NCBI RefSeq assembly: GCF_965277165.1
Contig: NZ_CBDICE010000005.1
Coordinates: 344,443 to 408,442, forward strand
DNA length: 64,000 nt
Origin: Rhodopila sp.
GTDB taxonomy: Bacteria; Pseudomonadota; Alphaproteobacteria; Acetobacterales; Acetobacteraceae
Reading direction: 5' to 3'
Part shown: piece after piece, positions 4,850 to 43,056 of the stretch
How positions within the stretch are numbered: the stretch's first letter is position 1
Layout of the letters: every line of letters starts with the position of its first letter
Program-made: the position numbers and the translations under genes
The notes under the pieces: model-generated
Seen by the model: the letters and a program-made list of their open reading frames with translations, nothing else
The model's database searches: none
Told to the model about the DNA's origin: nothing

Positions 4850-5801
4850 CCCAGGGCAGCCGGCCGACCGGGATCGATTTCACGACACGCAACGCCGCGA
4901 CGTCGATGACCGAAACGTCGTTGGACAAGCCGTTGGTGCTCAGCAGGTATTTGCCGTCCGGTGTGAATGCCATCTGCCAGACGCGCTGTCCCACCAGCAG
5001 ATACTTCTTCACCTTGTAGGTCTTGGTATCGACCACCGCGATCCGGTTTGCCGGGCCGAGTGCTACGAAAGCCGTGGCATCGTCCGGCGTAAAGCGGATG
5101 CCGACCGGCTGAATCCCCTCCGCCCGCAACCCCTGAACGCTGAACCTGATGATTCGTGTGACGACGTGCTTTTGCGGATCGATCACACTGACCATGCCGC
5201 CCTGTTCCGAGGACACCCAGACCTCCGACCCATCGTGCTTGAATTGGGCGATGCGCGGGCGGGCGCCGACCAGCACGCTTGCTACCATCTTGCGGGTGGC
5301 GACGTCAAAGAAATGCGCCATGTTCGTCGTTTCGGAAGTGTTCACGAACGTCTTGCCATCGGGGCTGACGGCTATGCCTTCCGGCTCGACCCCGGTTGGA
5401 ATCTGGGCAAGCATCTTGCGCGTCGCCACATCGATGACGGTGACCAGATTGTCATCCTCGTTCGAAACGAAAAGCGGGTTCCCCGAGACGTGCAATGCGA
5501 AGGTTTCCGGATCCGGACCCGATGGCAGATCGCCGACCACGCGCAGGCTCTTAGGATCGACGATCTGAATTGTATTATCATCGCTTGCACAGATCAGGAT
5601 TTCGCCGCCGTCCTTGGTCATCGTGATGCCGCGCGGGCGCTGCCCAACCGGGACGGTCTTCACCGTCTTCATCTGACCGAGATCGATCACGCTCATGGTG
5701 TCGTCGCGCTCATTCGTTACGTAGGCAAGATAGGCTCTGGCCGGCATTGCTCCCAGCGGCAGAAGCGTGAGCACGATCAGCGCGAGCCGGCCCGGGATCA
5801 T
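4827..5801 (-). CDS. YVTN-type beta-propeller repeat protein (PQQ-catabolism-associated)
   Basis: Repeated V(S/T)xDG/VIDxxT propeller units (YVTNERDDTMSVIDL, VSNEDDNLVTVIDV, LSNDVSVIDV). ATG 5801 overlaps the stop of the upstream binding-protein gene (ATGA). A signal peptide is present. Confidence 0.8.
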   Translation of the reverse strand: MIPGRLALIVLTLLPLGAMPARAYLAYVTNERDDTMSVIDLGQMKTVKTVPVGQRPRGITMTKDGGEILICASDDNTIQIVDPKSLRVVGDLPSGPDPETFALHVSGNPLFVSNEDDNLVTVIDVATRKMLAQIPTGVEPEGIAVSPDGKTFVNTSETTNMAHFFDVATRKMVASVLVGARPRIAQFKHDGSEVWVSSEQGGMVSVIDPQKHVVTRIIRFSVQGLRAEGIQPVGIRFTPDDATAFVALGPANRIAVVDTKTYKVKKYLLVGQRVWQMAFTPDGKYLLSTNGLSNDVSVIDVAALRVVKSIPVGRLPWGVVVAPK

Positions 5802-7021
5802 AGCTTGCACCTTGTTTCCGGACGGTCGAAGCCCAGCGTATCAAGCTCGGTCACTTGATGCAGGAAGCCGGGTTGCGGCGATACCGACACAACCGACCGT
5901 CCATCATCCAGCAGGATCGGCTGGCGCAACTGCAGGTCCCAGTCGCGCAGTGTGAGTTCCTGCCCCTTATAGGCCGCAATGCCGAAATTGGGCCCTTTCA
6001 TGTATTGCATGATCTTGGTCGGATCGGTGGACCCGGTGCGGCTGGCAGCCTCGCCGATCATCCGGCACGCGGTCCAGGCCTGCATGTCGAGTGGCGTCAT
6101 CCGCCGATGCATCGCCCGCATGAAGCGATCCTGAAGCTGGGCACCGCCCCAGGACTCGCTGCTTGGGCTCCAGGACACCGGGCGCAATCCGGCTGATCCG
6201 ACAACAGGACGAGGGTCCCAGGTGCGGAACGGCAGGTAGCCCGCAAACACTTCGTTCTCATCAGCGGTCACCAGCACATCGTAGTCGGGCAGCCCTTGAG
6301 TGAAGACCGGCATTTGCTGTTGCGTCTGCACCACCCCCGAATCGGTTTGCCGCGCGCCGCCGGTGTCCTTGAACTGCAACTCCTTCACGATGCGCGCACC
6401 AAATCGTTTGGCTGAACGCCGGTAGTCATCCGCCAGCAGTCCATCGTCGGGGTGGGAGCCATAGGCCAGAACCCAGCGAGCCCATCTCTTCCAGACCAGA
6501 TATTGCGCTATCGCATCGGCCAGCATGGCTCGTGACGGCGCCACATGAATCACATTGCTACGACAGGATTCCTGCCGCAGCGCATCATCCGGCGCGGCGA
6601 TGTTGAAGAGCGTGACGCCTTTGGCCAAGGCGGGCGCCGCCATGGCAAGTAGTTGCTGCGACGGAACATCAGTCAGGGCGAGGACGATTCCTGATGCCGC
6701 CACCTTGCCGACCGCCCCACCCGGATCATCACCGGCGCTTACCGGGGCATCGCTCAAGACAAATTGCTGATTGATGAAGTGGCCGGTGGTATTGTTGTCA
6801 CTAGTAGCAAGCCGAGCACCGGCCAGGCCATTGTCCGGTGCCGGCTTGTCTAGCAAGGAGATCGTTGGTCGCCGCTCAGTCCAGCGGAGATAACCGACTT
6901 CGACGGATGCGCCTTCGGCCGGCGACTCGGGTGCCATTGCCGCCAGCGTCGTCCCGGCCGCGGTTGTGATCAGCGCCCGTCGACCGAGTCCGTCACCTGG
7001 TGACGGTTTTGAACGTTCCAT
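5798..7021 (-). CDS. Periplasmic substrate-binding protein (LivK-like fold) of the PQQ-dehydrogenase-associated ABC system
   Basis: ATG at 7021 and a Tat-like N-terminus (GRRALITTAAGTTLAAMA). The 407-aa protein resembles type-1 periplasmic binding proteins. No cognate permease or ATPase is in the window. Confidence 0.7.
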   Translation of the reverse strand: MERSKPSPGDGLGRRALITTAAGTTLAAMAPESPAEGASVEVGYLRWTERRPTISLLDKPAPDNGLAGARLATSDNNTTGHFINQQFVLSDAPVSAGDDPGGAVGKVAASGIVLALTDVPSQQLLAMAAPALAKGVTLFNIAAPDDALRQESCRSNVIHVAPSRAMLADAIAQYLVWKRWARWVLAYGSHPDDGLLADDYRRSAKRFGARIVKELQFKDTGGARQTDSGVVQTQQQMPVFTQGLPDYDVLVTADENEVFAGYLPFRTWDPRPVVGSAGLRPVSWSPSSESWGGAQLQDRFMRAMHRRMTPLDMQAWTACRMIGEAASRTGSTDPTKIMQYMKGPNFGIAAYKGQELTLRDWDLQLRQPILLDDGRSVVSVSPQPGFLHQVTELDTLGFDRPETRCKL

Positions 7022-7095
7022 TCAGGCAGTATGCGGAACCCTTCTGGCCGCATCAACATGACTGCCGCCAAATCGCGCCTCCGACAGGGGATTTC

Positions 7096-7599
7096 ATGAT
7101 GAAGAATCTGCCATGTGCCTTGTTCATCGTCGCGTGCTGTACCGCAACAGCAGCCATGGCGAAGCAGCCTTCGCCCACCGCGGTGTTTAGTTTCGGCTTC
7201 GATGACACCAGCCCGCAGGATCCGCAGGCCGCCGACAGCAAACGTCTGGCCGCGCTGAACATCGAATTGCGGGACATGCTGGTTCAATCGCACTGCTGCT
7301 CGATCGTCGATCTCGGGCCGGTGGCGACGCAGGCTCATAGCGTGGACATGCGCACCTGCAATGGCTGTGACGTCGATCTGGCACGCAAGGTCGGAGCAAG
7401 GATCTCGGTGATCGGCTGGGTCCAAAAGGTGTCGAACCTGATCCTCAATATCAACCTGGTGGCGCGCGATGTCTCCACCGGTCAGGTGATCGAGGCAGGC
7501 AGCGTGGACATCCGCGGCAATACGGACGAAACATGGTCGCGTGGCCTATCCTACTTGTTACGCAACCGGCTGCACCCATCCGCATGGTTGAAATCATGA
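7096..7599 (+). CDS. Secreted hypothetical protein
   Basis: Track ORF 7000..7599. ATG 7096 gives the signal peptide MMKNLPCALFIVACCTATAAMA. A Cys cluster is present (HCCS, CNGCD). I cannot name the family with confidence. Confidence 0.55.
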   Translation: MMKNLPCALFIVACCTATAAMAKQPSPTAVFSFGFDDTSPQDPQAADSKRLAALNIELRDMLVQSHCCSIVDLGPVATQAHSVDMRTCNGCDVDLARKVGARISVIGWVQKVSNLILNINLVARDVSTGQVIEAGSVDIRGNTDETWSRGLSYLLRNRLHPSAWLKS

Positions 7600-7603
7600 C
7601 GCC

Positions 7604-7831
7604 TTGGCGAGAACGTTAATGAACCTGGTCGACCTTATCGTGCTCGCATGCACGCTGGCGAATCCGAGCGCGTGCCACGAATACCATGTCTTGTTTCAAA
7701 GCTCGGGTTCGCTGCAAAGCTGCATGACGCAGGCGCAGCCGTATCTGGCGCAGTGGGCCGGCGAACATCCGGCCTATCAGATCAGGCGCTGGCGGTGTGC
7801 CTGGCCGGACCAAGAAGGCGGGAAGATTTGA
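7604..7831 (+). CDS. Small hypothetical protein (four Cys)
   Basis: The 75-aa ORF starts 5 nt after the previous stop, at TTG 7604 or ATG 7619. The N-terminus is hydrophobic. It is supported only by position and codon usage. Confidence 0.4.
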   Translation: MARTLMNLVDLIVLACTLANPSACHEYHVLFQSSGSLQSCMTQAQPYLAQWAGEHPAYQIRRWRCAWPDQEGGKI

Positions 7832-7834
7832 TCG

Positions 7835-8293
7835 GTGGGCGCTGACAACGCGCCGGCCTATACTGGAACGACTTGCCGCAAGCTGCGCGCAAAGCGAGGT
7901 ATTTTGATAGGCAAATGTCTTTTCGCCATCGTGGTCGGCGCATGCTTGGCTGCTCCGGCGCACGCCCAGGACGCAGCGGCCGGCGAGAAGGATTTCGTCG
8001 TCTGCCGAGCCTGCCATCAGGTTGGGCCGGGCGCCAAAAACGCGGTTGGTCCGGTTCTGAACGGCGTCGTCGGACGGAAGGCGGGCACTTACCCGGACTT
8101 TGACTATTCGTCCGCCAACAAGGACTCCGGTATTATCTGGACACCCCAGGCGCTTGATAAGTATCTGACCAGTCCTCAAACGGTTGTTCCGCACACCAAG
8201 ATGATATTTCCTGGTCTCAGGGACGCGCAAAAGCGCAAGGATGTCATATCTTTTTTGCAACAGTTCAATGAGGATGGTACGACTAAGAAGTAA
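7835..8293 (+). CDS. Class I c-type cytochrome (cytochrome c2/c550-like)
   Basis: CRACH heme motif and a distal Met region (TKMIFPGL). The signal peptide is clearer if the start is TTG 7904 (IGKCLFAIVVGACLAAPAHA). Confidence 0.85.
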   Translation: MGADNAPAYTGTTCRKLRAKRGILIGKCLFAIVVGACLAAPAHAQDAAAGEKDFVVCRACHQVGPGAKNAVGPVLNGVVGRKAGTYPDFDYSSANKDSGIIWTPQALDKYLTSPQTVVPHTKMIFPGLRDAQKRKDVISFLQQFNEDGTTKK

Positions 8294-8338
8294 TACCCCG
8301 CCGGCGGATCCGGCGTTGGACCAACGGGAGACCCGCTC

Positions 8339-9448
8339 ATGCAAACGCGCGCTGCTGTGGCACGCCAGGCCGGCCAAGCCCTCAGCCTGGAAACCGTGGA
8401 ACTCGAAGGCCCCCGCGACGGCGAGGTTCTAGTCGAAATAAAGGCCACCGGTATCTGTCACACCGATGAATTTACCCTGTCGGGTGCCGATCCCGAGGGG
8501 ATTTTTCCGGCCATCCTCGGCCATGAGGGCGCCGGCATCGTGGTAGAGGTCGGCCCCGGCGTGACATCCTTAAAAAAGGGTGACCACGTCATTCCGCTCT
8601 ACACGCCGGAATGCCGGCAATGCGAATACTGCCTGTCGCGCAAGACCAATCTCTGCGTCGCGATCCGGGCCACGCAGGGCAAGGGGCTGATGCCGGACGG
8701 CACCAGCCGGTTTTCCGCCGACGGCGCGCCGATCATGCACTACATGGGCACTTCCACCTTCTCCAATTTCACGGTGCTGCCCGAGATCGCGCTAGCGAAG
8801 ATCCGCAACGACGCTCCGTTCGAGAAGGTCTGCTACATCGGCTGTGGTGTCACCACCGGGATCGGCGCGGTCATCAACACCGCCAAGGTGGAACCGGGCG
8901 CGCGTGTCGTGGTGTTCGGCCTCGGCGGCATCGGCCTCAACGTGCTTCAGGGTGCCAGACTAGCCGGTGCCGAAATGATCGTCGGGGTCGACCTCAATCC
9001 CCGGAGGCGGGAAATCGCCGAGAAGTTCGGCATGACCCATTTCGTCAATCCCAGCGAGGTGCAGGGCGATCTGGTGCCGTATCTGGTGGACCTGACCAAA
9101 GGCGGCGCCGATTACACGTTCGAATGCATCGGCAACACCAAGGTGATGCGACAGGCGCTGGAATCCGCTCATCGCGGTTGGGGAAAGTCGATCATCATCG
9201 GCGTGGCCGCCAGCGGGCAGGAAATCGCTACCCGTCCATTCCAGCTTGTTACGGGGCGGGTATGGATGGGCACCGCGTTCGGCGGCGCGCGCGGTCGCAC
9301 CGACGTGCCGCGGATTGTCGACTGGTATATGGATGGCAAGATCAATATCGACGATCTGATCACCCATGTTCTGCCGTTCGACAAGATCAATGACGGCTTC
9401 GACCTGATGCGACGTGGCGAGAGCATCCGCACCGTCGTGACCTATTAA
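8339..9448 (+). CDS. frmA: S-(hydroxymethyl)glutathione dehydrogenase / class III alcohol dehydrogenase
   Basis: The 369-aa protein shows the Zn-ADH signatures GICHTDE and [12 protein letters not shown], the structural Zn cluster [15 protein letters not shown], and the Rossmann motif VFGLGGIGL. Confidence 0.93.
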
Positions 9449-9488: not shown

Positions 9489-10067
9489 TCAGTGGGGCTG
9501 CAGCCCCGCCGTCTTGGCTGCGTGCGTTGCGATGGCGTCCATCAACGCCGGCGACAAGCAGTCGTACGGCTCCAGCCCAACGTCCTTCAGCCGACCACGA
9601 ACGCTGGCCATTCTTTCCGGCGCCACGCCAGCCTCGATCACCGACGACACAAATGCCGCGAACTCCGGCGGTGGCCAGCCTGACTCCTGGAACAATTCCG
9701 GGTGGATGAAGTCAAAGCCATAAAACGGATGGTTCTTGTTCTCGATCCGGCCATACATGTGGACGCCGCAACCCCTGCAGGCGTGCCGCTGAATAGCCGC
9801 CGAGGCATCGACAACCTCCAGCTTGCCTTCGTTCTGGGTGACCTGAACCTTGTCCCGCGGAACCGCTGCCACGAGGGAGAAATCCGTTCCGGCCGGCTTC
9901 CAGCACTTGGTGCATCCGCACACATGATTATACGCTATCGAGCCGTCTATTTTGATCTTTACCGGATCCTGTGTGCATTTGCAGATCAACGTTCCACCGT
10001 TGAAACTGGCGGTGCCAGGCTTTAGCCCGGAATCCACAACTGGGTGGATGTGAATCGCCTCGGACAT
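9489..10067 (-). CDS. gfa: S-(hydroxymethyl)glutathione synthase (glutathione-dependent formaldehyde-activating enzyme)
   Basis: The 192-aa protein has the Gfa Cys pattern ([21 protein letters not shown]) and is convergent with frmA. Confidence 0.9.
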
Positions 10068-10213
10068 GCTCTCATCCCTTTCATTATTTGACTGCCAAGC
10101 CGTTCAGGCGGCAATAGCGCGGCCCGAAACAAGATGCGCTAAGTCCTTCGGCCGGCACTAAAGTACTATCGACAATCCCGGGTAACGTCAAAGAACTCCC
10201 GATGATGCTCCGG

Positions 10214-11908
10214 TCAGGCAGCCCGAGGCCCACGCACCAGCCGCCCCGGCAACGCACCGGTCGGCTCGCCCGCCCGATAGACCACCTCCCCAGACACCAC
10301 CGTCGCGTCGAAGCCATCGGTCCGCTGCACCAGGCGCTTGCCGCCGGCAGGCAGGTCGTAGACAACTTCAGGGCTGCGCAGCACCAGCCGGTCGTAGTCG
10401 ATCACGTTGACATCCGCCTTCATACCCACTCGCAGCAATCCACGATCGTTCAAACCGATCGCCGTGGCGTTGTCGTGACTGAGCCTTTTCACCGCCCAGG
10501 CGACCGGAAACAACTCGCCACGGCCGCGTTCGCGGGTCCAGTGCGTCAGGGTATAGCTGGTCGCGGTCGCGTCGCACATGATCCCGACATGCGCGCCACC
10601 ATCGCCCAACCCGAGCAGAGTATCCGGATGGGCAATCATCGTCCGTACCACATCCAGATTGCCCGCCGCATAGTTGGTCACCGGAAGATAAAGTATTGCC
10701 TTGCCGTCACGCTGCATCAGCAGGTCATAGGCAACCTCGTCAGGCGACCGGCCTTCGCGCGCCGCGAGGGCGGCGACACTGTTATCCGGCGGCGGTTCGT
10801 AGTCTGGCGGGTCGCCCAGTGGGAACATAGTGTTCCACCCGCCACGCCGTCCGATCGGTGCGTCTTCCGCCAGCAGCGCCGCCCGAAACGCCGGATCCCG
10901 CAGCCGCTGCATCCGCTCGGGAAAATTGAGTTTGGCGATCGTCTTATACGATGGCCTGCTCATGAACGGGTTCTGCGACAACTCGAAGCCCAGCAGCACG
11001 CTGGTCGGCCGCGACCGCACCTGACCGGTGATGCGCAACCCGTCCGCGTTCGCCGCTTCGATCTGATCCAGCAACTCGCGCCATCCGGCCGGCCTCGAGT
11101 CCGACTGCAGCAGCGTCAATGTCACCGGCCGCCCGGATTCCTCCGCCAGCCGACGGAACAGCCCGAACTCCTGGTCCTGATCTTCGAAATCCGAAACGAT
11201 CTGCAGCCAGCCCGCACTGGCCCGGCGCATGGCATGGGCAATCGCGGTCAGCTCCGCCTGCTCGGCACGCAGCGTGGGGATGTGCTTCCCGTCCAGCGTC
11301 CGGTGATTGAGCGTGCGCGAGGTGGAGAACCCAAGCGCCCCGGCGCGGATGCCCTGTTCGGCCAACTCGGCCATCCGGCCACGGTCCTGTTCGGTAGCCA
11401 GTTCCCGGTCAGCGCCGCGTTGCCCCATCACGTAGACCCGTAGCGCCGCATGTGGCACCTGCGTGGCAATATCGACATCATATCGCCGCCGGTCCAGCAC
11501 ATCGAGAAACTCAGGGAACGTATTCCAGCTCCAGGGCAGGCCCTCGGTCAGCACAACCTCGGGAATGTCCTCGACGCCTTCCATCAGCTTGACCAGCATC
11601 TCGCGCTGACCCGGATGGCAAGGTGCGAAGCCGACGCCGCAATTGCCCATCAGGACAGTGGTCACACCATTCCATGACGACGGAGAAAGCTGCGAACTCC
11701 AGGTCACCTGGGCGTCGTAATGAGTATGCACATCGACAAAGCCAGGCGTGACCAGCCGGTCCCGCGCATCAATCTCCTGCCCGCCTCGCGGAAGCGACTT
11801 GCCGATTGCGCTGATCCGTCCGTCGGTAACCGCGACATCAGCCTGCAGCGGATCGCGTCCGGACCCGTCGATGACCGTGCCGTTGCGGATGACCAGGGTC
11901 GCGGGCAT
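10214..11908 (-). CDS. Amidohydrolase, N-acyl-D-amino-acid deacylase (D-aminoacylase) family
   Basis: ATG 11908 follows GGAGGAGAAAGCC. The N-terminus (IRNGTVIDGSG...VTPGFVDVHTHYD) and the 564-aa length are typical of the family. Confidence 0.85.
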   Translation of the reverse strand: MPATLVIRNGTVIDGSGRDPLQADVAVTDGRISAIGKSLPRGGQEIDARDRLVTPGFVDVHTHYDAQVTWSSQLSPSSWNGVTTVLMGNCGVGFAPCHPGQREMLVKLMEGVEDIPEVVLTEGLPWSWNTFPEFLDVLDRRRYDVDIATQVPHAALRVYVMGQRGADRELATEQDRGRMAELAEQGIRAGALGFSTSRTLNHRTLDGKHIPTLRAEQAELTAIAHAMRRASAGWLQIVSDFEDQDQEFGLFRRLAEESGRPVTLTLLQSDSRPAGWRELLDQIEAANADGLRITGQVRSRPTSVLLGFELSQNPFMSRPSYKTIAKLNFPERMQRLRDPAFRAALLAEDAPIGRRGGWNTMFPLGDPPDYEPPPDNSVAALAAREGRSPDEVAYDLLMQRDGKAILYLPVTNYAAGNLDVVRTMIAHPDTLLGLGDGGAHVGIMCDATATSYTLTHWTRERGRGELFPVAWAVKRLSHDNATAIGLNDRGLLRVGMKADVNVIDYDRLVLRSPEVVYDLPAGGKRLVQRTDGFDATVVSGEVVYRAGEPTGALPGRLVRGPRAA

Positions 11909-12339
11909 GGCTTTCTCCTCCGATCCCGAAGCCTATCGACGGCCGCATCGGCGGGCAAGCAAGACGGTCACAGCTAACGTCACAGGCCGCCGAAGCAATT
12001 ATGTTATTATTAAGAAATAATTAGACCACGGGACGACCCGCCAACACCCAACGCTCGCCGTATTTGGCGCTTGACGTTCGGGCCGGCTTTCATCTTTGTG
12101 TGCGCCGACGACGGGCACCAGCCCGCTTTGCAATACGCCGTGCGATAACAAATACTTGAACCGAGGTTCATCTGTCCGGTCGCGCTGACATTGTCGATGT
12201 CGATGTCGATCCACTGGCTGAGCGGTCGCGCCGGCGAAACACCCTGCTGCGCATCGGCCTGCCGCTATGCGGGGTAGGCCTCATCATCGGCTTCCTGCTC
12301 GGCATTGCCGTCTATGCCGATAACGCCAACCGCGCCGGC

Positions 12340-14457
12340 GTGCTGGGCCTGTCAAGCACGCTGCTGCGCAGCACGCAGGAGCGAATCTCGCTGCAGGTGT
12401 CCGCCTATCTCGAACCCGCCGCGCACGCCACGCTGCTCGCCCACACCATGCTCGGGCGCGGCGGCGCAACGCAGCATGACAAAGAGGCATACGCCTTCGC
12501 CGCCTCGGTGCTGACCGAGACGCCACAGATCGCCAATGTGCTGTTCGCCGACGGCGCGGGAAACTTCATGCTGGTGACACGGGCCGCCAACGGCCAGCCT
12601 GGCGCCACCGATACCAAACGCATCCTGGTGTCGGCCTCCGGCAGAACCGTCGAATGGGTCACCCGCGACAAAAGCGGCGCTGTCACCGCCCGCCGCGAGG
12701 ATCCAAAGGACGATTACGATGCCCGGACCCGGTCCTGGTTTACTGGCGCGCGAGCCTCCGCCGACGTGTTCTGGAGCGGGGTCTATATCTTCTTCTCGGA
12801 ACGAGCGCCCGGCGTCACGGCCGCGGTACACGGTCCCGGCCCCGATCCCGATGTGATCGGCGTCGATATTCGACTGGACGCCATCTCCCGCTTCCTCGGC
12901 GGGCTTTCGATCGGACAGACCGGTCGAGCCTACATTGCCACACGCGACGGCGAGATGATCGCCGGGCCTGATTCGAAGCGCATCCTGCAAACCGTCGACG
13001 GAAAACTTGCACCAGCCCGGATCGGGCAGGTTGGTGATCCCGACCTGACTGCCAGTTGGGATCATTTCCGTGCCCAGGGCCCGGGCAACCGCGTCATCGA
13101 TGTCAACCAACGCCGGCTGATCTCCATCGTCACCCCGCTCGCCAACAACGGCCAGGACTGGCTGCTGTTCATCACCGTGCCGGAGTCCGAATTCAGCGGT
13201 TTCGTCACCGCCAACACCCGCCGTGCCGCGCTATTGTCGCTGGTCGTGGTCGCACTGGCTGCCGGCTTAGGGGTGCTGCTGGTGCGCCAGGGATTGCGCG
13301 CCGACCGGTCCGCCAGGGTAGTCGCCGAACGATCCGCCGCGGTCGAGCAGCAAAGCGCCGCCTTCGCCCGGCTGTCCGCCGAGGCAGGCATGTTCGACCC
13401 CGACGGCACCCCGCCCAAGGCGTTGACCGAGACCTTGGCCGAAGCCACCGGCGCCAAAAGAGCCGCGGTGTGGCGATGTTCCGGCCAGGGCCAGGCCCTG
13501 CGCTGCGACGACAGCTTCGAACCCGCGACCGGAGGCCATGTCGGCGGCCTCGAACTATCACGCCAGGAGATGCCGGCGCTGTTCGATGCAATGGCGGAAG
13601 ACGAAACCATAGACGCACCCGATGCCAGGCGAGACCGGCGCACCGCGGCACTACATGGCTCCCTGATGGCCCCCTTCGGCAGTAATGCCCTGTTAGCCGT
13701 GCCGGTTACCCGGGCAGGACGAGCGATCGGCCTGGTGACGCTGGAAGACGCACGCCGGGACCCTGCCGCCCGCGATTTTGCCCGTGCCTGCGCCACTCTG
13801 GTGGCCCTGGCCACCCCTGACAGAATACCGGAAGCCGGAACCGCCCCGCAGACCTCGGCGGCGGCCGAAGCCGAACCCGTGGCGGACGAACGTGGCCTCG
13901 ATCCGGCGCTCGCTGCCTACAGCGCCGCCGACGAAACCCACCCGCAGGCGATGGTGCTGGTGCTGACACTGCCCGACGCCACGGCCCCGCTGGCGCATCA
14001 GGTCGCCTGCTCGGCGCAGTCCATCGCCGCCGCCCATGAAATCCCTTACGTCAAGATGCTAGGCACCACGATCGTCGCCGCCGCCGGCTTTGCCACCCAA
14101 TCACCCGCCGGACTGGCCGAAGCCGCATCGAGGATGGCCGACGTCGCTATCGCGCTGCGCGAACGCTGCGCCGAACTGTTCGATTCCGACGGCGGACTGG
14201 CCGCGTTCGGCCTCGGTCTGGATGTCGGGTCCGTCGTCGGCGCCACCCTCGGCTATACACCCGGCGTGTTCAATCTGTGGGGCGAGACGGTGCAAGCCGC
14301 CGGCGCGCTGGCCGCTTCGGCTCCCGCTGAGTCCATTCAGGCCAGTGAGCCCGCCTACCTTTTGCTGCGTCAGGGCTTTTTGTTCCGCCCGCGCGGCCTG
14401 TTCTATCGTCCCCATACCGGCGATTCACGCAGCTTCGTCCTGGCCGGCCGCGCATGA
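12340..14457 (+). CDS. Membrane sensor: dCache-like periplasmic region, TM, GAF-like region, and a degenerate class III nucleotidyl-cyclase homology domain
   Basis: Cache-like features are present (DARTRSWFTGA, IGVDIRLDAIS). A second TM segment reads AALLSLVVVALAAGLGVLLV. The C-terminal cyclase-like block reads KMLGTTIVAAAGF...LGLDVGSVVGATLG...FNLWGETVQAAGALA. The true start is probably upstream, because an in-frame TM segment is encoded at 12241-12339 (see findings). Confidence 0.75.
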   Translation: MLGLSSTLLRSTQERISLQVSAYLEPAAHATLLAHTMLGRGGATQHDKEAYAFAASVLTETPQIANVLFADGAGNFMLVTRAANGQPGATDTKRILVSASGRTVEWVTRDKSGAVTARREDPKDDYDARTRSWFTGARASADVFWSGVYIFFSERAPGVTAAVHGPGPDPDVIGVDIRLDAISRFLGGLSIGQTGRAYIATRDGEMIAGPDSKRILQTVDGKLAPARIGQVGDPDLTASWDHFRAQGPGNRVIDVNQRRLISIVTPLANNGQDWLLFITVPESEFSGFVTANTRRAALLSLVVVALAAGLGVLLVRQGLRADRSARVVAERSAAVEQQSAAFARLSAEAGMFDPDGTPPKALTETLAEATGAKRAAVWRCSGQGQALRCDDSFEPATGGHVGGLELSRQEMPALFDAMAEDETIDAPDARRDRRTAALHGSLMAPFGSNALLAVPVTRAGRAIGLVTLEDARRDPAARDFARACATLVALATPDRIPEAGTAPQTSAAAEAEPVADERGLDPALAAYSAADETHPQAMVLVLTLPDATAPLAHQVACSAQSIAAAHEIPYVKMLGTTIVAAAGFATQSPAGLAEAASRMADVAIALRERCAELFDSDGGLAAFGLGLDVGSVVGATLGYTPGVFNLWGETVQAAGALAASAPAESIQASEPAYLLLRQGFLFRPRGLFYRPHTGDSRSFVLAGRA

Positions 14458-15233
14458 GTATGCTCTCTGTCGTCGGCGCCGAGACCCGCAAGCGCTCGTC
14501 CTACGTGCTGCAGCTCGCTTCCCTGTTCTGGGGCGTGATCCGCGAAATCGCATGGCCATCCACCTGGCGACGGACCTTGCGCGCCGTGTTCCGAACCACC
14601 CTGACCCAGACCGTCGCCGGCTCCCTCGGAACCATTGCAGTCACCGCGCTGATCGTCGGTCTGGGCCTGGTGTTCGAGGCGATCTATTGGCTGCGCACCG
14701 CTGGGCAACAGGAACAGATCGGCCGCATCCTGGTCGTCGTGCTGTTCCGCGAGATCACCCCGCTGCTGGTCGGCATCATCCTGCTGGGCCGCGCCGGCAC
14801 AGCGGCGACCGCCGAACTCGGCATGCTGACAGCCGACGGAGAGATCGCGATACTGCGCGCCGAGGGAGTGGACATCTTCGATTTCATGGTGCTGCCGCGC
14901 GCCGTTGCGTTCGCTCTGGGGTCATTCACGCTGGGAGTGATGTTCGTGCTGGTGGCATTGATCAGCGGCTTCGTCACCGGCAGCTTCGCCGGCGTGGTCA
15001 ATACCTCGATCTTCGGCTTTCTGGACAATGTGCTGCGCGCCATGACACTGGGTGACATGGTGATCTTCCCAGCCAAGCTGTTGCTGATCGGGCTGGTCGT
15101 GGCGCTGAGTTCCTGCGTCACCGGGCTCGGCGCGCAAGAAGCCGATACACCGTCTAGCCTGCTGCCCCGCGGCTTTACCAGAGGCGTCACCGGCATCCTG
15201 ACGGTGAGCCTCGTACTGAGCGCCACGATTTGA
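14454..15233 (+). CDS. MlaE/YrbE-family ABC permease
   Basis: ATG 14454 overlaps the upstream stop (ATGA). The family block FREITPLLVGIILLGRAGTAATAELGMLTADGEIAILRAEG is present in a multi-TM, 259-aa protein. Confidence 0.88.
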   Translation: MSMLSVVGAETRKRSSYVLQLASLFWGVIREIAWPSTWRRTLRAVFRTTLTQTVAGSLGTIAVTALIVGLGLVFEAIYWLRTAGQQEQIGRILVVVLFREITPLLVGIILLGRAGTAATAELGMLTADGEIAILRAEGVDIFDFMVLPRAVAFALGSFTLGVMFVLVALISGFVTGSFAGVVNTSIFGFLDNVLRAMTLGDMVIFPAKLLLIGLVVALSSCVTGLGAQEADTPSSLLPRGFTRGVTGILTVSLVLSATI

Positions 15234-15928
15234 CCCCACCGCCCACCCTGGCTCTGCAGGCGGCGCGCGGTTCGGGCGAACGAATGCCCCTCGCCGCGCT
15301 CAACCTGACCCTTTTAGCCGGAGACTTCGCGCTGATCGAGGTCATGGGATCGCGACGTGGCGCGGCGTTCGCCGATCTGTGCTGTGGTCTGGCGCCGCTC
15401 GCGTCCGGCGGCGCGCATTTCCTCGGCCGGGACTGGCATGCCATCCCACGCCATCATGCCGACGCGTTGCGAGGCCATATCGGTCGGCTGTTTCATGTGC
15501 CGATGCGCCAGGACACGCCCGACGTCGCCACCCGCGTGCTGCTGGCACGGCTGCACCACACCCGCGTCCCGGAGGCCACGTTGCGCGCCGAGGCCACCAG
15601 ACTGGCGCTGCGCTTCGGCCTGCCCGGTCTGCCTGCCGGCCCGGCTCGTCGCTTGACCGACCCGGATCTGCTGCGCGCGGCCTGCGTGCGCGCCTTCATT
15701 GGGCAGCCGCGTCTGGTGATCCTGGAACTGCCGGGGACCACGCAGCAGGACGACCTTGTGCCGGCCCTGCTGGAAGCCGGCACCGAGGCGCGCGGCCAGG
15801 GCGTGGCGGTGATCTGGCTGGCGGGTGCCGGCCCGGTGCTGCGCGACCGCTCGATCCGCCCCACCCACCGCCTGCGTCTGAACGACACCGGGCTGGCGCC
15901 TATGCGAACCTTGGCGCGCGCGGCATGA
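15230..15928 (+). CDS. ABC nucleotide-binding-domain-like protein with degenerate catalytic motifs (pseudo-ATPase candidate)
   Basis: TTG 15230 overlaps the mlaE-like stop. Overall order and spacing match MlaF. However, VMGSRRGAA replaces Walker A, LTDPD replaces LSGGQ, and LVILELP replaces hhhhDEP. Confidence 0.65.
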   Translation: MTPPPTLALQAARGSGERMPLAALNLTLLAGDFALIEVMGSRRGAAFADLCCGLAPLASGGAHFLGRDWHAIPRHHADALRGHIGRLFHVPMRQDTPDVATRVLLARLHHTRVPEATLRAEATRLALRFGLPGLPAGPARRLTDPDLLRAACVRAFIGQPRLVILELPGTTQQDDLVPALLEAGTEARGQGVAVIWLAGAGPVLRDRSIRPTHRLRLNDTGLAPMRTLARAA

Positions 15929-16878
15929 GGATCCTGCGCAATACCGACGAATGGATCGGTCTGCTGGTGCTGCTGAGCATCGGCGTTTTCGTCGCCGCCG
16001 TCCTGCACGCCGGCCTGCTGAGCGATTGGTTCCGCCCCACAGAAACCTTGCGTGTCATATTGCCCGAGACCGGCAGCCAGGGTCTGTCCTCGGGCGCCGA
16101 TGTCCAGGTGCTGGGCACCAAGGTTGGCACCGTGCGCCGCGTCGTGGTCGACCCCAGTACCCGCATGTATGCCGAGGTCGAGCTGGACCAGCAGGCGACG
16201 GCATTCATCCGGCGCGACAGCCACGCCTTGGTGAAGAAGCAGTTCGGCGTGGCGGGCGCGGCCTATCTGGACATCACCCGCGGCACCGGAGCGCCGCTCG
16301 ACTGGAAGTACGCGGTGATCGACGCGGTGACGGAACGCGACCCGACCGAGAACATCGGCGCAATGATCGACCAGGTTAAGGCGAAGGTATTTCCGATTCT
16401 GGACGACGCCGCCAAGACCATGCACGCCTTGGCCGATACCACGCAGAGCATAGCCGAGGGCCACGGTGACGTCGGGCGATTGCTGAAGAACGAGGATCTG
16501 GCGAACCAGTTGACCCAGACCCTGGCAAACCTGAAGACCGCGACCAACCGACTGAATGCCTCATTGGCCGACGTCAATTCAGTGACTGCCACGGCCAGCG
16601 GCCCACAGGGCGTCCCAGCGCTGCTGCGCCGCGCCGACGCCTCGCTTGCCTCGGTGCAGAAGGCGACCCACGATTTGGCCAACGCCACGCCGAGACTGCC
16701 GGCGATTACCCGCGACGTCGGCACCAGCACCGCCAATCTGCCGGCGCTGCTGACCCAGACGCAGACGACGATGGTGGAACTGGAAAAGCTCACGGACCAA
16801 TTGCGCCATACCTGGCCGCTTTCCGGTTCGGCCAAACCCGAACCACGCCGCCTGTCGCCGGAACAAGTAAGACCATGA
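15925..16878 (+). CDS. MlaD/MCE-domain protein with long C-terminal helical extension
   Basis: ATG 15925 overlaps the upstream stop (ATGA). An N-terminal TM segment (WIGLLVLLSIGVFVAAVL) is followed by an MCE beta-barrel-like block (LRVILPETGSQGLSSGADVQVLGTKVGTVRRV). Confidence 0.85.
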   Translation: MRILRNTDEWIGLLVLLSIGVFVAAVLHAGLLSDWFRPTETLRVILPETGSQGLSSGADVQVLGTKVGTVRRVVVDPSTRMYAEVELDQQATAFIRRDSHALVKKQFGVAGAAYLDITRGTGAPLDWKYAVIDAVTERDPTENIGAMIDQVKAKVFPILDDAAKTMHALADTTQSIAEGHGDVGRLLKNEDLANQLTQTLANLKTATNRLNASLADVNSVTATASGPQGVPALLRRADASLASVQKATHDLANATPRLPAITRDVGTSTANLPALLTQTQTTMVELEKLTDQLRHTWPLSGSAKPEPRRLSPEQVRP

Positions 16879-17714
16879 AGCGGCTGACGCTCGTTCTGCT
16901 GCTGCTGGCTGGTTGTTCATCCACCCCCAAGAGCAAACCCCAGGATCCGACGTTGTCGCGGTTGGATCATGCTGGCGATATCGCCTTCGACCTGGAGCAG
17001 CCGGATCAAGCCGTGACGCAATTCCGTGCGGCGCTGGCGCGGGCTCACACCGCCGACAACGCGTCGGCGATCGCCGATGCCGGCTTCAACCTTGCGACCG
17101 CCGAGCTGCGTGCCGGACGGCCGCACGACGCACTGCGAACCGCACAGGAATTAACCGCGGGACTGGCAAGACGCGGCATCGTCGATCCGGATTTCGAGTT
17201 GATTTCAGCGACCGCGCTGTTTCGCCTTGACAACTTGCCGGCATCCGCCCGAGCAGCCAATAGATTGACCGCAGCCAAGAGTCCCGCGCTGACCAATGCG
17301 GCCTGGTTTCTGCTCGGTCTGATCGCTGACCAGCGACACGATCGAACCGGTCTTGAAAAGGCCATCGCGTCGATGACCCCGGCGGCTGATCCAGGTGACC
17401 TGGCTGAACTCCAGGCCAGGCTTGCCCACAGCGCGCCGCTGGCACTGCATGCAGCCGATTTGCGCCGAACCCAATTGGACTACCGGGGGATGGCGCGCGC
17501 GCTGGCGCTGGCAGCACAGTACTCCGCCAACGCCCGGAATGCGACGGATCTGTATCTCCGCGCCGGTCGCAGCGCCGCCGGCCAGGGCGATGCCGCCAAT
17601 GCCAAAGCCTGGCTTGGCAGCGCACGAGGGCTGGCTCCGGATACCGCCCTTCGTACCGATGCGGAGCATGCGTTGCATGACCTGTCCAGTCGCCCCGCGC
17701 ACGGATCCAACTAG
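16875..17714 (+). CDS. Lipoprotein with helical (TPR-like) repeats, last gene of the Mla-like operon
   Basis: ATG 16875 overlaps the upstream stop (ATGA). The lipobox is LLLLAG-C. The remainder is Ala/Leu-rich helical sequence. Confidence 0.65.
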   Translation: MKRLTLVLLLLAGCSSTPKSKPQDPTLSRLDHAGDIAFDLEQPDQAVTQFRAALARAHTADNASAIADAGFNLATAELRAGRPHDALRTAQELTAGLARRGIVDPDFELISATALFRLDNLPASARAANRLTAAKSPALTNAAWFLLGLIADQRHDRTGLEKAIASMTPAADPGDLAELQARLAHSAPLALHAADLRRTQLDYRGMARALALAAQYSANARNATDLYLRAGRSAAGQGDAANAKAWLGSARGLAPDTALRTDAEHALHDLSSRPAHGSN

Positions 17715-17798: not shown

Positions 17799-18356
17799 TT
17801 ACCGATAAACCAGCGCGCTCGGCGAAAGTCCCATCGCCGTGACCGTTGCCGGGGTCAGTTGCCCACTCGGTTCCAGTCCACGGTTGCGTTGGAACTGACC
17901 GACCGCGTTCTGCGTGCCTTCTCCCCAGACCCCGTCGACGCCGCCCGTGTAGAAGCCCAGGCTGCGCAGCCGCTCTTGAACCGCTCGCACCGAACCCGGC
18001 CGCAGTGTGTCCGCCGGGGGCGGCGCCGGAGCCGCAGCGGCCGCGGGCTGCGCACCCAGCAATGTCTGCGGATCAAGCCCGAGCGTCGCCACCGTCGCCT
18101 GGTTCAACTGGCCCGTCACTTGAAGCTGATGACTGGCCTGAAATTGCTGCAGCGCCACGACGCTGTCCGATCCCCATACCCCGTCGACCGCGCCGCTATA
18201 GGCTCCGGCCTGGCGCAAGTGCTGTTGAACGGCCTGCACCCCGGCGGGCGACACCGGCTGGACATAGGCCAACGGCGGGATGGTCTGGCCGGAAGCCAAC
18301 GGGGCGAACGAGGCGGCCAGAACCGCGCCCGCGGCAAGTATCGCAAAAGGTTTCAT
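17799..18356 (-). CDS. Secreted protein with two peptidoglycan-binding (PG_binding_1-like) repeats
   Basis: ATG 18356 gives the signal peptide MKPFAILAAGAVLAASFAPLASG. Two copies of the GxYxGxVDGVWGxxxxxAxxxFQ unit are present. Confidence 0.8.
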   Translation of the reverse strand: MKPFAILAAGAVLAASFAPLASGQTIPPLAYVQPVSPAGVQAVQQHLRQAGAYSGAVDGVWGSDSVVALQQFQASHQLQVTGQLNQATVATLGLDPQTLLGAQPAAAAAPAPPPADTLRPGSVRAVQERLRSLGFYTGGVDGVWGEGTQNAVGQFQRNRGLEPSGQLTPATVTAMGLSPSALVYR

Positions 18357-18579
18357 GTTGCACACCCAGTACTGTCCGCGATGAAACGCCGCCGCCGGCG
18401 CAGCCGTTTCATTGTCGGCATACGCCGTCGATCAGCTTTTGGTTAGCACAGGTTTTCCCGGCACGGCGCATGATCCCAAGCAACGAGGTGGGTCCGGCCC
18501 GTGCGCGACCGCAACCAGGAAAGGTTGCGGCAATCACCATCGTAGGCCATCGTCGCGGCGATCAGACAGGGACGATCCG

Positions 18580-19929
18580 ATGCAGCGCGATGCACGCGGT
18601 CTCCAGCTCTCGACCGACAGCGCCGCGGCGGCCGCGCTGTTCGATCGCGCGGTGGAGCATTTCTTGAAATATCACCGCGACACCATGAACCTGGTCAGCC
18701 AGGCGCTCGCCGCCGATCCGGGGTTCGTCATGGGGCACTGCATCAGCGGCTACCTAATGATGGCCGGCGCCAATCCGGCGCATCGGCCGGCGATCGCCCG
18801 CAGCCTCGCCGCGGCCGAAGCCGGGTCCGCCGTCGCCACCAGGCGTGAGCAACGCCATGTCACGGCGCTGTCCGCCTGGACCCGCGGCGCCCTGGGCGAG
18901 GCGTTTGCCGTCTGGCGCGATCTGCTCGATGACGATCCCACCGATCTGCTGGCGGTGCGCATCAGCGACACCACGCATTTCCGCTTCGGCCACACCCAGG
19001 CCGTCCTGGACCAGGCCGACCGCCTCGCGCCGGCCTGGTCACCCGATCTGCCCGGCTACGACTGCTTCCAGTCGGTCTGGGCCTTCGCCCACGAGGAAGC
19101 CGGAGACACCGAAGGCGCCGAACGCGCAATCGACGCCGCGTATGAACGCGACCCGGAAAATTTCTTTGCCCATCATGTCAAAGCCCACATCCTGGAGGCC
19201 GACAGCCGCCCGCATCAGGGCAACGACTGGCTCGCCGCGCAGACCGGCTATTGGCCGATTGGCAACAACCTCGTGCATCACCTGTGGTGGCACCGCGCGC
19301 TGATGCAGCTCGATCTCGGCCAGCGCGACGCGGTGCTCGCCAGCTACGACGCCAACATCCGCAACCTGGGCGCCCCGCTGACCAAGGCGGCCCCCGACCA
19401 GTTCAACGACCTGCAAAACGCCACCGCGCTGCTTTGGCGGCTGGAACTGCTGGGACTGGACGTCGGGGCGCGCTGGGACGAATTGGCCGACAAGGCCGAA
19501 GCGCGGATTGGCGACACCGCCTATCTGCTGCTGCCACCACACCTGATGTTGGCATTGGCGGCAACCGAACGCGACGCCGCCTCCGCCCGCTTCCTGGCCG
19601 CGCTGCGCGAGCAGGCCGGCGATCCCAATCGATGGGACGCCGCAGCGATCGGCGATGTGGTCGTGCCGGCGTGCGAGGCCGGCCTGGCGCATCGGCGTGG
19701 ACAGCACGCTCAGGTCGTCACCCTGCTGGCGCCCCGCCTGGAGCAAATCCGCCTGCTCGGCGGCAGCAACGCCCAACGCGACCTGTTCCGCCAGATCCTG
19801 ATCGATTCCGCGATGCGGGCGGATCGTCGCGACGTCGTTGCCGCGATGATCGCCGAGGAGACCGTCAGCCATACCGTTCCACCAGCTGAACGTGCCGGTT
19901 ACGCCGCCGCGGCGCGCTGGCTGATGTAG
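18580..19929 (+). CDS. TPR-repeat protein (TTC38-like family)
   Basis: ATG 18580 within track ORF 18412..19929. The helical-repeat protein begins MQRDARGLQLSTDSAAAAALFDRAVEHFL. The family call is from memory. Confidence 0.6.
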   Translation: MQRDARGLQLSTDSAAAAALFDRAVEHFLKYHRDTMNLVSQALAADPGFVMGHCISGYLMMAGANPAHRPAIARSLAAAEAGSAVATRREQRHVTALSAWTRGALGEAFAVWRDLLDDDPTDLLAVRISDTTHFRFGHTQAVLDQADRLAPAWSPDLPGYDCFQSVWAFAHEEAGDTEGAERAIDAAYERDPENFFAHHVKAHILEADSRPHQGNDWLAAQTGYWPIGNNLVHHLWWHRALMQLDLGQRDAVLASYDANIRNLGAPLTKAAPDQFNDLQNATALLWRLELLGLDVGARWDELADKAEARIGDTAYLLLPPHLMLALAATERDAASARFLAALREQAGDPNRWDAAAIGDVVVPACEAGLAHRRGQHAQVVTLLAPRLEQIRLLGGSNAQRDLFRQILIDSAMRADRRDVVAAMIAEETVSHTVPPAERAGYAAAARWLM

Positions 19930-41029: not shown

Positions 41030-41044
41030 ACTGGAACCCCTGCC

Positions 41045-42127: not shown

Positions 42128-43056
42128 GCACAGCCGGCCTCAGCTCGGTCTTGCCCATCGGCCGCGCCGACGCGACGTCCAGGCGGCATCGATCCGCCCG
42201 GCTGCCACCGTGGCTGGTATCGTGGCTTCAGGTCAGCCCGCTGGCGCTGATCCTGTTCGTCCTGTTCGCCCTGCCGACCACGCTGTTCCTGATCGTTAGC
42301 TTCTACGACTACGACCGCGTCGGCATCTACCCGGCCTTCCTTTTGGACAACTACCGCGAACTGCTGACCACGCCCGCCACCTGGCGCGTTTACGTCAGTT
42401 CACTCCGCTTCGCCTTCATCGTCTGGGCGATCACCCTCTTCCTCGGCTTCAACATCGCCTACTTCCTTATCTTCCATATCCGGAACAACATCACCCGCAC
42501 CGTGTTGTTCCTGCTCTGCGCCGTCCCGTTCTGGACCTCCGGCATCATCCGCACCATCGCCTGGATCCCATTCCTTGGCCGAAACGGTGCCTTCAACCAG
42601 CTTCTGATGGGCCTCGGCCTCACATCACATCCGCTGACCTTCCTGCTGTTCTCCGACTTTGCCGTCATCGTCACCTACGTCCACCTGTTTACTTTGCTGA
42701 TGGTTGGCCCGATCGCCAATTCGCTGTCGAAAATCGACCCCGCGCTGCTCGAGGCCGCGGTCGACGCCGGCGCCAGCCGATGGCGCACCATGGTCGACAT
42801 CGTCATCCCGCTGTCGAAAACCGGCATCACCCTGGGCTCGATCCTGGTGTTCACTCAGGTGATGGGCGACTATTTCGTTGTCCGCCAAATGAGCGGCGGC
42901 CAAAGCGCCTCCATCGTCTCGATGCTGTCCACCGAAATCCAGGCGATGCAGTATCCGCCGGCATCGGCCAACGCCATGGTGCTGGTCGTCTTCGTCGCCA
43001 TCCTGGTCGCCGCCATGATGAAGGTCGTCGACGTCCGCAAGGAATTGGTGAAATAG
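42124..43056 (+). CDS. ABC transporter permease (PotB-like)
   Basis: ATG 42124 overlaps the upstream stop (ATGA). The multi-TM protein has an EAA-type loop ([26 protein letters not shown]). Confidence 0.88.

Follow-up and report, generated by a model that had tools for sequence, protein, structure and literature searches.

A conserved MCE-type operon from Rhodopila sp. that combines a degenerate cyclase-homology receptor with an ABC subunit lacking ATPase motifs

An MlaE-MlaD operon beside the described MCE systems

The Mla-Pqi chimeric system (Mpc) of Brucella abortus is composed of MpcE-MpcF-MpcD-MpcA and has been proposed to bridge both membranes (PMC12436622). Among characterised systems, its architecture comes closest to that of a five-gene operon found in a 64,000 nucleotide stretch of Rhodopila sp. 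DNA (contig NZ_CBDICE010000005.1, positions 344,443 to 408,442), hereafter the window. The operon encodes a receptor ending in a degenerate class III cyclase-homology domain, an MlaE-type permease, a protein with the predicted fold of an ATP-binding cassette (ABC) nucleotide-binding domain (NBD) but without its catalytic motifs (the pseudo-NBD), an MlaD protein, and a lipoprotein (Table 1). We conclude with high confidence that its anatomy is that of a widely conserved MCE-type envelope system. The two conserved pseudoenzymes on the cytoplasmic side are an unusual twist on MCE/Mla-type systems.

Like Mpc, the operon is alphaproteobacterial and encodes an MlaE-type permease, an NBD subunit and a terminal outer-membrane lipoprotein. 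MpcD has an MCE domain followed by a long coiled-coil needle, a layout that the MlaD protein described here resembles, and neither MlaA nor MlaC is involved. The two systems differ in that MpcF is described as a conserved ABC ATPase homologous to MlaF, whereas the NBD here is without any ATPase motif. The N-terminal STAS (MlaB-like) domain of MpcE is absent here, MpcA is PqiC-like whereas the lipoprotein here is predicted to be a TPR solenoid, and Mpc has no dCache-GAF-cyclase receptor. The initial annotation was unable to map the operon onto the Mla, Pqi, Let or Mce systems. This remains correct for the systems listed; Mpc, which was not among them, comes closest, yet itself differs.

The MlaFEDB complexes of E. 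coli, A. baumannii and P. aeruginosa (PDB 6XBD, 7CH8, 6Z5U) have homologous MlaE and MlaD proteins, and the modelled pseudo-NBD can be superposed on MlaF (TM-score ~0.77). MlaF, however, hydrolyses ATP under the control of the STAS protein MlaB, whereas the NBD here appears to be dead. MlaD of MlaFEDB has 183 aa and passes lipids to the soluble MlaC and the outer-membrane MlaA, whereas MlaD here has 317 aa. Genes for MlaB (STAS), MlaC or MlaA were not found in the operon, its flanks or the related loci examined. PqiABC and LetAB are MCE-based and periplasm-spanning and have no ABC ATPase; Pqi and Let are described as lacking an ATPase domain, and Pqi has a helical needle with an outer-membrane lipoprotein cap (PMC12436622). 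They differ from the present system in that PqiA and LetA show no relationship to MlaE, an NBD-like subunit is lacking, each MCE protein has 3 or 7 MCE domains, and PqiC is not TPR-like. The mycobacterial Mce1-4 systems (PDB 8FED) have an MlaE-like YrbE and MCE proteins with helical needle extensions. These proteins form heterohexamers, and the envelope is of another type. The mce operons have no ATPase gene of their own and the active ATPase MceG docks on YrbE, whereas here a gene for the NBD fold stays in the operon but its product appears inactive. To our knowledge, every characterised MlaE/YrbE-based system (Mla, Mpc, TGD, Mce) has been described as ATP-driven. Full-text literature searches for MlaE with cyclase, for degenerate or inactive MlaF and for pseudo-cyclases returned nothing relevant, and no such variant is mentioned in the Veillonella Mla paper or the Brucella Mpc paper (PMC12436622). 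A characterised function for the family, which the initial annotation had allowed for, was thus not found in these searches.

The pseudo-NBD and the degenerate cyclase domain

The pseudo-NBD has no Pfam match. As a single sequence it gives a weak signal to NCBIfam FtsE (2.8e-5) and marginal PDB matches to OppF and FtsE; as a positive control, the genuine ABC ATPase encoded at 43903-44943 of the window scores 7.7e-34 on ABC_tran. An AlphaFold (AF2) model built from 26 homologues has a predicted local distance difference test score (pLDDT) of 87.8 and a predicted TM-score (pTM) of 0.87, and superposes on the NBDs of YbbA, FtsE, MacB, MlaF and LolD with TM-scores of 0.73-0.82 (Foldseek). In hmmsearch against PDB, a profile of 40 family members is colinear with FtsE over positions 6-211 (E=1e-23) and matches MlaF at 6e-20 to 2e-17. 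The model thus predicts an ABC ATPase fold with confidence. The mapping of motifs relies on these profile matches rather than on a single-ATPase hhalign; the hhalign against the window's own ATPase pairs LSGGQ with LTDPD and LLLDEP with VILELP at a low probability (5%).

Read by eye, the NBD-like protein had been described as lacking Walker A, LSGGQ, Walker B and the H-loop His, and the alignment to the FtsE profile bears this out (Table 1). The losses are common to the 26 close homologues, the divergent loci L018-L021 and 149 distant representatives. All 149 distant representatives inspected lack the P-loop, and a single distant member, L018, has a His at the H-loop position. Few parts of the protein are less conserved than the P-loop block, so an alternative nucleotide site at that position is unlikely. 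Conservation is highest in the signature helix (RAACVRAFLG), the helical subdomain (FGLPGLP) and the Q-loop strand, the opposite of the pattern in a working NBD. Intact motifs elsewhere in either pseudoenzyme, which were considered as an alternative, are ruled out by colinear profile alignments: reading the catalytic columns revealed none in the NBD or the cyclase domain. Neither ATP binding nor ATP hydrolysis therefore seems plausible for the pseudo-NBD. Its pairwise ratio of nonsynonymous to synonymous substitution rates (dN/dS) is 0.16-0.32.

The permease is a typical MlaE protein, as first annotated. No Pfam family other than MlaE matches the 259 aa, and its PDB matches are MlaE (1.3e-12) and YrbE. 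A permease this typical, by Pfam and by PDB, would suit an explanation already raised in the initial annotation, that an ATPase is borrowed in trans. Here a canonical MlaF-type NBD encoded elsewhere would replace the pseudo-NBD or heterodimerise with it. Mycobacterial Mce systems are served by the ATPase MceG, which is encoded outside the mce operons, and heterodimeric ABC transporters with one degenerate site are well known. The proposal is weakened by the loss of both halves of the composite ATP site, since with Walker A, Walker B and the signature all gone no consensus site would form even in a heterodimer. The pseudo-NBD gene is also coupled to mlaE and under purifying selection, which implies that its product fills both MlaE docking sites stoichiometrically, and within the 64-kb window the sole genuine ABC ATPase, a MalK-like protein with a TOBE domain, belongs to an importer. 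We regard a borrowed ATPase as quite improbable.

The cyclase-homology domain of the receptor is homologous to class III cyclases (Cya, PDB 7YZ9; the C2 domain of mammalian adenylate cyclase (AC)), with which it shares the sensor-transmembrane-cyclase architecture. Its family profile matches AC5, AC8 and Cya in the PDB at 1e-29 to 1e-32. The KMLGTT and WGETVQAAGA substitutions reported from inspection by eye were recovered in pairwise and profile alignments to solved cyclases. The column of the first metal Asp holds Thr in the window (Thr or Arg in the profile) with an Asp three residues later, this being the least certain of the catalytic positions to map. The substrate Lys is kept and the substrate Asp is replaced by Asn. 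Mammalian C2 likewise has a non-Asp residue at the K-x-x-G-D position, but C2 retains both Asn and Arg and pairs with a complementing C1, whereas the window domain has neither set of catalytic residues. For this reason no active site is expected in a homodimer or in a C1/C2-like pair.

Across the family the Asn position is Arg, Gln, His, Gly or Glu in all inspected members but L107, and the Arg position is Gly, Ala, Ser, Lys or Gln. The second metal Asp is still present in many sediment and gammaproteobacterial members, which have Lys for Arg. By these alignments degeneration of the cyclase domain is family-wide but graded, the Rhodopila-type clade being the most eroded. Residual nucleotide binding by the cyclase domain is conceivable in the clades with Asp and Lys, and is not expected in the window clade. 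This gradation bears on whether the two proteins are cryptic enzymes with non-canonical catalysis or nucleotide binding, e.g., a cyclase domain that takes over the nucleotide-dependent step of the NBD. Many members keep the substrate Lys, the second-site Asp, the Asp at +3 and a Lys for the Arg, and the recurrent pairing of cyclase domain and pseudo-NBD across phyla suggests a functional hand-over. However, in the window clade T, Q and G stand in place of the second Asp, the Asn and the Arg, the Asn is replaced in all inspected members but L107, and the P-loop region of the pseudo-NBD is unconserved even within the family. Cryptic activity is in our view very improbable.

Conservation and distribution of the operon

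The five co-directional genes and the coordinates of their four 4-nt overlaps are exactly as the initial annotation gave them, and the translational coupling it proposed is supported by comparison of 21 related genome loci (GTDB species representatives; numbered with the prefix L). The overlaps are kept in most of these loci, including those at 31-46% identity, and that between the receptor gene and mlaE in ~18 of the 21. Their conservation exceeds chance. The order receptor-mlaE-NBD-mlaD-lipoprotein is found in 18/21 loci, again down to 31-46% identity. The five-gene order occurs in Rhodopila, Acidisphaera sp. S103, Elioraea tepidiphila DSM 17972, Stellaceae and metagenome-assembled genomes (MAGs) of Rhodospirillales, and also in one Chromatiaceae MAG. 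The lipoprotein of L018 and L021 is too diverged for tblastn, yet the lipobox is visible by inspection.

A further 80 metagenome loci were found with a 12-sequence alignment (A4), and are biased towards the 'RAACVRAFL' subfamily. They were scored with hidden Markov models built from the five operon families. Among informative loci, the NBD gene is preceded by mlaE in 68/68 and followed by mlaD in 75/75; mlaE is in turn preceded by the receptor gene in 49/49, and mlaD followed by the lipoprotein gene in 46/47. A gene order peculiar to this strain, a possibility left open by the initial annotation, is ruled out by the genome and metagenome loci together.

Pairwise dN/dS is 0.10-0.32 for all five genes, both pseudoenzymes included, and all five are under purifying selection. 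Decaying pseudogenes or an annotation artefact were considered and are ruled out by dN/dS of 0.1-0.3 and deep conservation; the pseudoenzymes are not decaying, because their dN/dS is low and the family is deeply conserved. In L015 (a MAG) the receptor ORF (open reading frame) runs into mlaE, and in L017 (a MAG) the receptor gene, mlaE and mlaD are fragmented. These frame breaks and fusions are probably assembly errors or local decay in the MAGs. No riboswitch or known RNA above noise was found in the 5' region of the operon, counts of internal promoters and terminators were at or below shuffle expectation, and no plasmid-borne copies of the operon were found.

Close homologues of the pseudo-NBD number 360. 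When 1.84 billion representatives of 50% identity clusters were searched in full with a HMMER profile, 1,254 family clusters were found at E<=1e-3, 556 at <=1e-10 and 159 at <=1e-30. Named members come from Rhodopila, Stellaceae, Chromatiaceae and other Gammaproteobacteria, Verrucomicrobiota and Kiritimatiellia. In a split variant of Rhodopila type (L008, L009 and L011; positions ~4900-8700) receptor, mlaE and NBD genes have no mlaD or lipoprotein gene beside them. Two other loci from uncultured Rhodopila (L108 and L109; 5051-6867) hold a lone mlaD-lipoprotein pair with the same 4-nt overlap in another context. The pair may be the other half of the split loci. In this variant the receptor goes with the part of the system that lies in the inner membrane and the cytoplasm.

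More distant loci (L103, L105, L106, L107, L110-L113) encode MlaE, a pseudo-NBD, a long MlaD and a 300-375-aa protein that is often TPR-like. They have no receptor gene upstream; some are from Verrucomicrobiota and others likely from other phyla. In L111 the operon continues, across a 4-nt overlap, with a gene (9719-10759, +) for a soluble protein of 346 aa that has a degenerate cyclase domain at its C-terminus. A homologue with 33% identity over its full length is convergently adjacent in L107 (9747-10796, -). Both proteins (~346 aa) consist of an N-terminal domain of unknown type, a coiled coil and the degenerate cyclase domain, and BLAST of the window cyclase domain matches them at E 9e-12 (L111) and 2.5e-8 (L107). 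The same BLAST gave no match to the active CHASE2-cyclase of L110. No cyclase-domain gene was seen near the pseudo-NBD systems of L112 and L106. The MCE core with a pseudo-NBD thus recurs together with a degenerate cyclase domain, though not universally. Proteobacterial members have this domain fused to a membrane receptor, and the MCE core with a dead NBD is older and broader than this fusion.

Two of these loci have further neighbours. Genes for a Ras/Roc-like small GTPase and an OmpA-domain protein adjoin the L107 pseudo-cyclase gene on the same strand (10800-13264, -), and their products may be additional partners in the L107 lineage. Downstream of its four-gene core, the Verrucomicrobia locus L110 encodes an SH3 protein, an M48 peptidase and the intact CHASE2-cyclase (9650-13182, +), and its pseudo-NBD still has a Pfam ABC_tran match in the precomputed annotation.

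Receptor, periplasmic components and possible mechanism

The initial annotation started the receptor gene at 12160. Between the stop codon at 12157-12159 and GTG 12340 the sequence offers no ATG, GTG or TTG, so that start is not retained. The codon homologous to CTG 12172 is CTG in 8 related loci, GTG in L002, and TTG in L006 and L007; GAGG, AGAGG or GGAGGA motifs lie at an equal distance from the start in L002, L003, L007 and L008. The N-terminal residues are conserved in tblastn alignments. Given the lack of other start codons before 12340, the conserved N-terminus and first transmembrane segment (TM1) in this region, and the homologous start codons, translation most likely starts at CTG 12172. 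The NCBI model P0121 (Rhodopila sp.; 705 aa, 100% identical) starts from GTG 12340 and is N-terminally truncated, without the conserved N-terminal motif and TM1. Receptor dN/dS is 0.13-0.23.

The receptor consists, in order, of an N-terminal cytoplasmic motif, TM1, a dCache_1 domain, a second transmembrane segment (TM2), a GAF domain, a variable linker and the cyclase-homology domain. The N-terminal peptide is a candidate docking motif, a role suggested by its conservation, and has variants [IV]V[DE][IL]SxD in sediment and soil loci. A threefold GTCGAT repeat at 12193-12210 encodes the (VD)3 of the conserved peptide DIVDVDVDPLAER; since the peptide is conserved across the family, the repeat is coding sequence and not a slippage artefact. 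The placement of TM2 follows that in other dCache receptors. The GAF-like region noted earlier is confirmed by the Pfam GAF match, and the dCache-like periplasmic region, which falls just under the Pfam cut-off, is rescued by profile. Its best PDB matches are the chemoreceptors PctA, PctB and PctC (1.5e-7 as a single sequence), the profile matching PctA at 2e-18. The AA_motif of dCache_1 is Y121, R126, W128, Y144 and D173 in PctA numbering (PMC8915833). In phmmer alignments these five residues correspond to Y, R, W, Y and D of the receptor, and the motif is kept in 46/47 family members, the first Tyr being Tyr or Phe. The dCache domain thus carries the complete amino-acid-binding motif, and its predicted ligands are molecules with a free amino group and a carboxylate. 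The receptor shares all five residues and its best PDB matches with the dCache_1AA receptors (PctA/B/C), but its output is a pseudo-cyclase and an MCE system, not a chemoreceptor, kinase, GGDEF domain or active cyclase.

The MlaD protein has an N-terminal transmembrane anchor (hydrophobic residues 10-31), one MCE domain and a tail of ~190 aa. NCBIfam MlaD and Mce as well as MlaD entries in the PDB match the 317-aa protein. The tail is rich in helix formers and includes a GRLL motif, which we take to be one also present in other long MCE proteins, and homologues have faint PF28544 Helical_needle matches. The best PDB sequence match to the whole protein including part of the tail is chain I of 13hr, a 312-aa Mce/MlaD protein (8 chains); the match is weak (E 8.6e-4) and aligned through residue 251. 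PDB 13hr may represent a comparable long-MlaD system. Of the MCE protein with a long helical tail that was first described, the MCE domain is confirmed by Pfam MlaD, while the tail is presumed to be helical on indirect grounds (composition, the faint Pfam matches and 13hr).

The lipoprotein was recognised by its LAGC lipobox and helical repeats, and both stand: Cys14 is invariant and the AF2 model (pLDDT 85.8) is a confident TPR-like solenoid. Lipoboxes are also present in the divergent L018, L019 and L021 homologues. Pfam TPR matches are weak, and Foldseek returned generic TPR proteins only (CTPR, LGN, PilF, BamD). A PqiC- or MlaA-like lipoprotein was rejected, there being no Pfam or NCBIfam signal for one and only generic TPR matches in Foldseek.

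This complete set of periplasmic parts bears on whether the system transports at all. The MCE part might instead report the envelope or lipid state or tether the membranes, the output being signalling or architecture, with the pseudo-cyclase binding an active cyclase or some other partner, by sequestration or as a heterodimer. The loss of both enzymatic activities is typical of pseudoenzymes that act as scaffolds. A dead and an intact class III cyclase monomer would together form two incomplete sites, and an active CHASE2-cyclase is encoded three genes downstream in Verrucomicrobia L110. ABC modules have been repurposed for sensing, e.g., BceAB-BceS, and BceA is among the best PDB matches of the pseudo-NBD family profile. 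However, no output domain or partner is conserved nearby across loci, unrelated genes lie between the core and the L110 cyclase, of which no other locus has a counterpart, and the complete MlaE-MlaD-lipoprotein conduit is strictly conserved, which better fits a role that needs a channel. A pure sensor or scaffold is therefore, in our estimation, unlikely.

Our best guess, put forward tentatively, is an ATP-independent MCE conduit or tether gated by the receptor. Since ATP binding and hydrolysis are implausible, the conduit or tether would be passive. MlaE, pseudo-NBD and MlaD would probably assemble like MlaFEDB (2:2:6), the MlaD tails probably forming a periplasm-spanning tube as in Pqi, Mce and Mpc, and the TPR lipoprotein would cap or anchor this tube at the outer membrane. 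Like PqiAB and LetAB, such a device would need no ATP to move or bridge lipids or another hydrophobic cargo. On the coupling helices of MlaE the pseudo-NBD dimer would act as an allosteric adaptor and structural cap, and may have been kept because MlaE needs such a cytoplasmic cap. A periplasmic amino-acid-type ligand at dCache, perhaps with a cytoplasmic ligand at GAF, would rearrange the pseudo-cyclase dimer, which would dock on the pseudo-NBD/MlaE face and gate the conduit. Opening and closing of the pseudo-NBD would then be driven by the receptor and not by ATP. The N-terminal peptide of the receptor would be a second candidate docking element. We place the cyclase-homology domain at the cytoplasmic face of MlaE and the pseudo-NBD because the receptor stays with mlaE and the NBD gene in the split loci, and because free-standing pseudo-cyclase genes lie in or beside the operon in L111 and L107. 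Allosteric gating is favoured because of this placement.

Several points weigh against receptor gating. The receptor or pseudo-cyclase is not obligatory for the core, given L112 and L106. Gating supplies neither an energy source nor directionality. With the Asp and Lys kept in several sediment and gammaproteobacterial clades, nucleotide binding by the cyclase domain is conceivable in part of the family. More speculatively, the pseudo-cyclase and pseudo-NBD dimers might be a nucleotide-free allosteric pair in which receptor mechanics replace ATP-driven NBD dimerisation, forming a ligand-gated trans-envelope lipid channel across Proteobacteria, and in Planctomycetes-Verrucomicrobia-Chlamydiae (PVC) bacteria with a free-standing pseudo-cyclase. 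We hold this extended version to be doubtful. Candidate ligands of the channel would be free amino acids and lipid head groups that bear an amino acid (e.g., phosphatidylserine or ornithine lipid).

The energisation and direction of MCE systems are still debated, and a large, selected MlaE-MlaD family with an NBD unfit for ATP would be a natural 'ATPase-null' experiment. Should lipids still be moved, MlaE-type permeases are able to serve as conduits, either passive or gated; should they not, a scaffold or sensor has been made out of an ABC transporter. In Proteobacteria, the degenerate cyclase together with an amino-acid-type dCache would tie small-molecule sensing to the handling of envelope lipids. 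The cultured carriers Elioraea tepidiphila DSM 17972, Acidisphaera sp. S103 and Aliidongia dinghuensis make these ideas testable. In the databases the proteins are labelled 'phospholipid/cholesterol/gamma-HCH transport system ATP-binding protein', 'ABC transporter ATP-binding protein', 'adenylate cyclase' or 'hypothetical'. The labels 'ATP-binding protein' and 'adenylate cyclase' mislead, and automated annotation also shortens the receptor owing to its CTG start.

Table 1. Features of the five-gene operon, with positions in the window.
Feature	Position	Strand	Details
Five-gene operon	12172-17714	+	receptor, mlaE, pseudo-NBD, mlaD and lipoprotein genes; five consecutive ORFs
Receptor gene, 761 aa	12172-14457	+	CTG start most likely, from comparative evidence
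Shine-Dalgarno-like GAGG	12163-12166	+	5 nt upstream of the receptor CTG
Cytoplasmic N-terminal peptide	12184-12237	+	ADIVDVDVDPLAERSRRR; just before TM1; conserved to ~33% identity
TM1 of receptor	12244-12318	+	LLRIGLPLCGVGLIIGFLLGIAVYA
dCache_1 periplasmic sensor domain	12586-13170	+	Pfam, 44.2 bits vs cut-off 45
AA_motif residues (YDARTRSWF ... VY ... VDI)	12715-12876	+	putative amino-acid-binding motif of dCache_1
TM2 of receptor	13225-13284	+	AALLSLVVVALAAGLGVLLV; predicted placement
Cytoplasmic GAF domain	13420-13812	+	PF01590, 3.8e-12, 47.3 bits, above cut-off
Ala/Pro/Glu-rich linker, GAF to cyclase-homology domain	13813-13947	+	variable in length and sequence, poorly conserved
Degenerate class III cyclase-homology domain	13948-14454	+	Pfam PF00211 Guanylate_cyc, 1.7e-8, above cut-off, partial
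KMLGTT	14050-14070	+	second metal Asp to Thr; pairwise (AC8-C2, mycobacterial Cya) and profile alignments
WGETVQAAGA	14278-14307	+	transition-state Asn to Gln, Arg to Gly; pairwise and profile alignments
ATGA overlap, receptor gene/mlaE	14454-14457	+	start/stop, 4 nt
MlaE-type permease, 259 aa	14454-15233	+	PF02405 MlaE, 1.3e-33, 116.9 bits vs cut-off 22.5
TTGA overlap, mlaE/pseudo-NBD gene	15230-15233	+	start/stop, 4 nt; ATG or GTG at this codon in other loci
Pseudo-NBD, 232 aa	15230-15928	+	TTG start; predicted ABC ATPase fold, catalytic motifs lost
Walker A position, VMGSRRGAAF	15341-15370	+	FtsE GHSGAGKST faces unconserved family residues
Q-loop Gln to His	15482-15499	+	Glu or His in family (FtsE profile alignment)
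LSGGQ to LTDPD	15653-15667	+	family 'lsead' faces FtsE LSGGE
Walker B Asp-Glu to Glu-Leu	15713-15733	+	Glu-Arg or Glu-Leu in family
H-loop His to Gly	15812-15832	+	Ser or Gly in family
ATGA overlap, pseudo-NBD gene/mlaD	15925-15928	+	start/stop, 4 nt
MlaD/MCE protein, 317 aa	15925-16878	+	PF02470 MlaD, 5.9e-10, 39.7 bits vs cut-off 25.1
ATGA overlap, mlaD/lipoprotein gene	16875-16878	+	start/stop, 4 nt
Lipoprotein, 279 aa	16875-17714	+	lipobox, disordered tether of ~25 aa, TPR-like solenoid of 14 helices (predicted)
Lipobox LAGC	16905-16916	+	signal peptide MKRLTLVLLLLAGC; Cys14 invariant in 33 homologues

The genes flanking the operon are not conserved across loci, with the exception of the same-genus locus L001. 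Conservation of the flanking genes for a PG-binding protein and an amidohydrolase was considered and rejected, these being common only to L001. Convergent with the end of the operon is a gene for a secreted protein with two PG_binding_1 domains (17799-18365, -), followed by a 505-aa ORF without a Pfam match (18412-19929, +); both are syntenic only in L001. Further along the window, an unrelated cluster for a solute-binding-protein-dependent ABC importer (39734-44943) encodes an SBP_bac_8 protein, a luciferase-like monooxygenase, permeases and the MalK-like ATPase with a TOBE domain.

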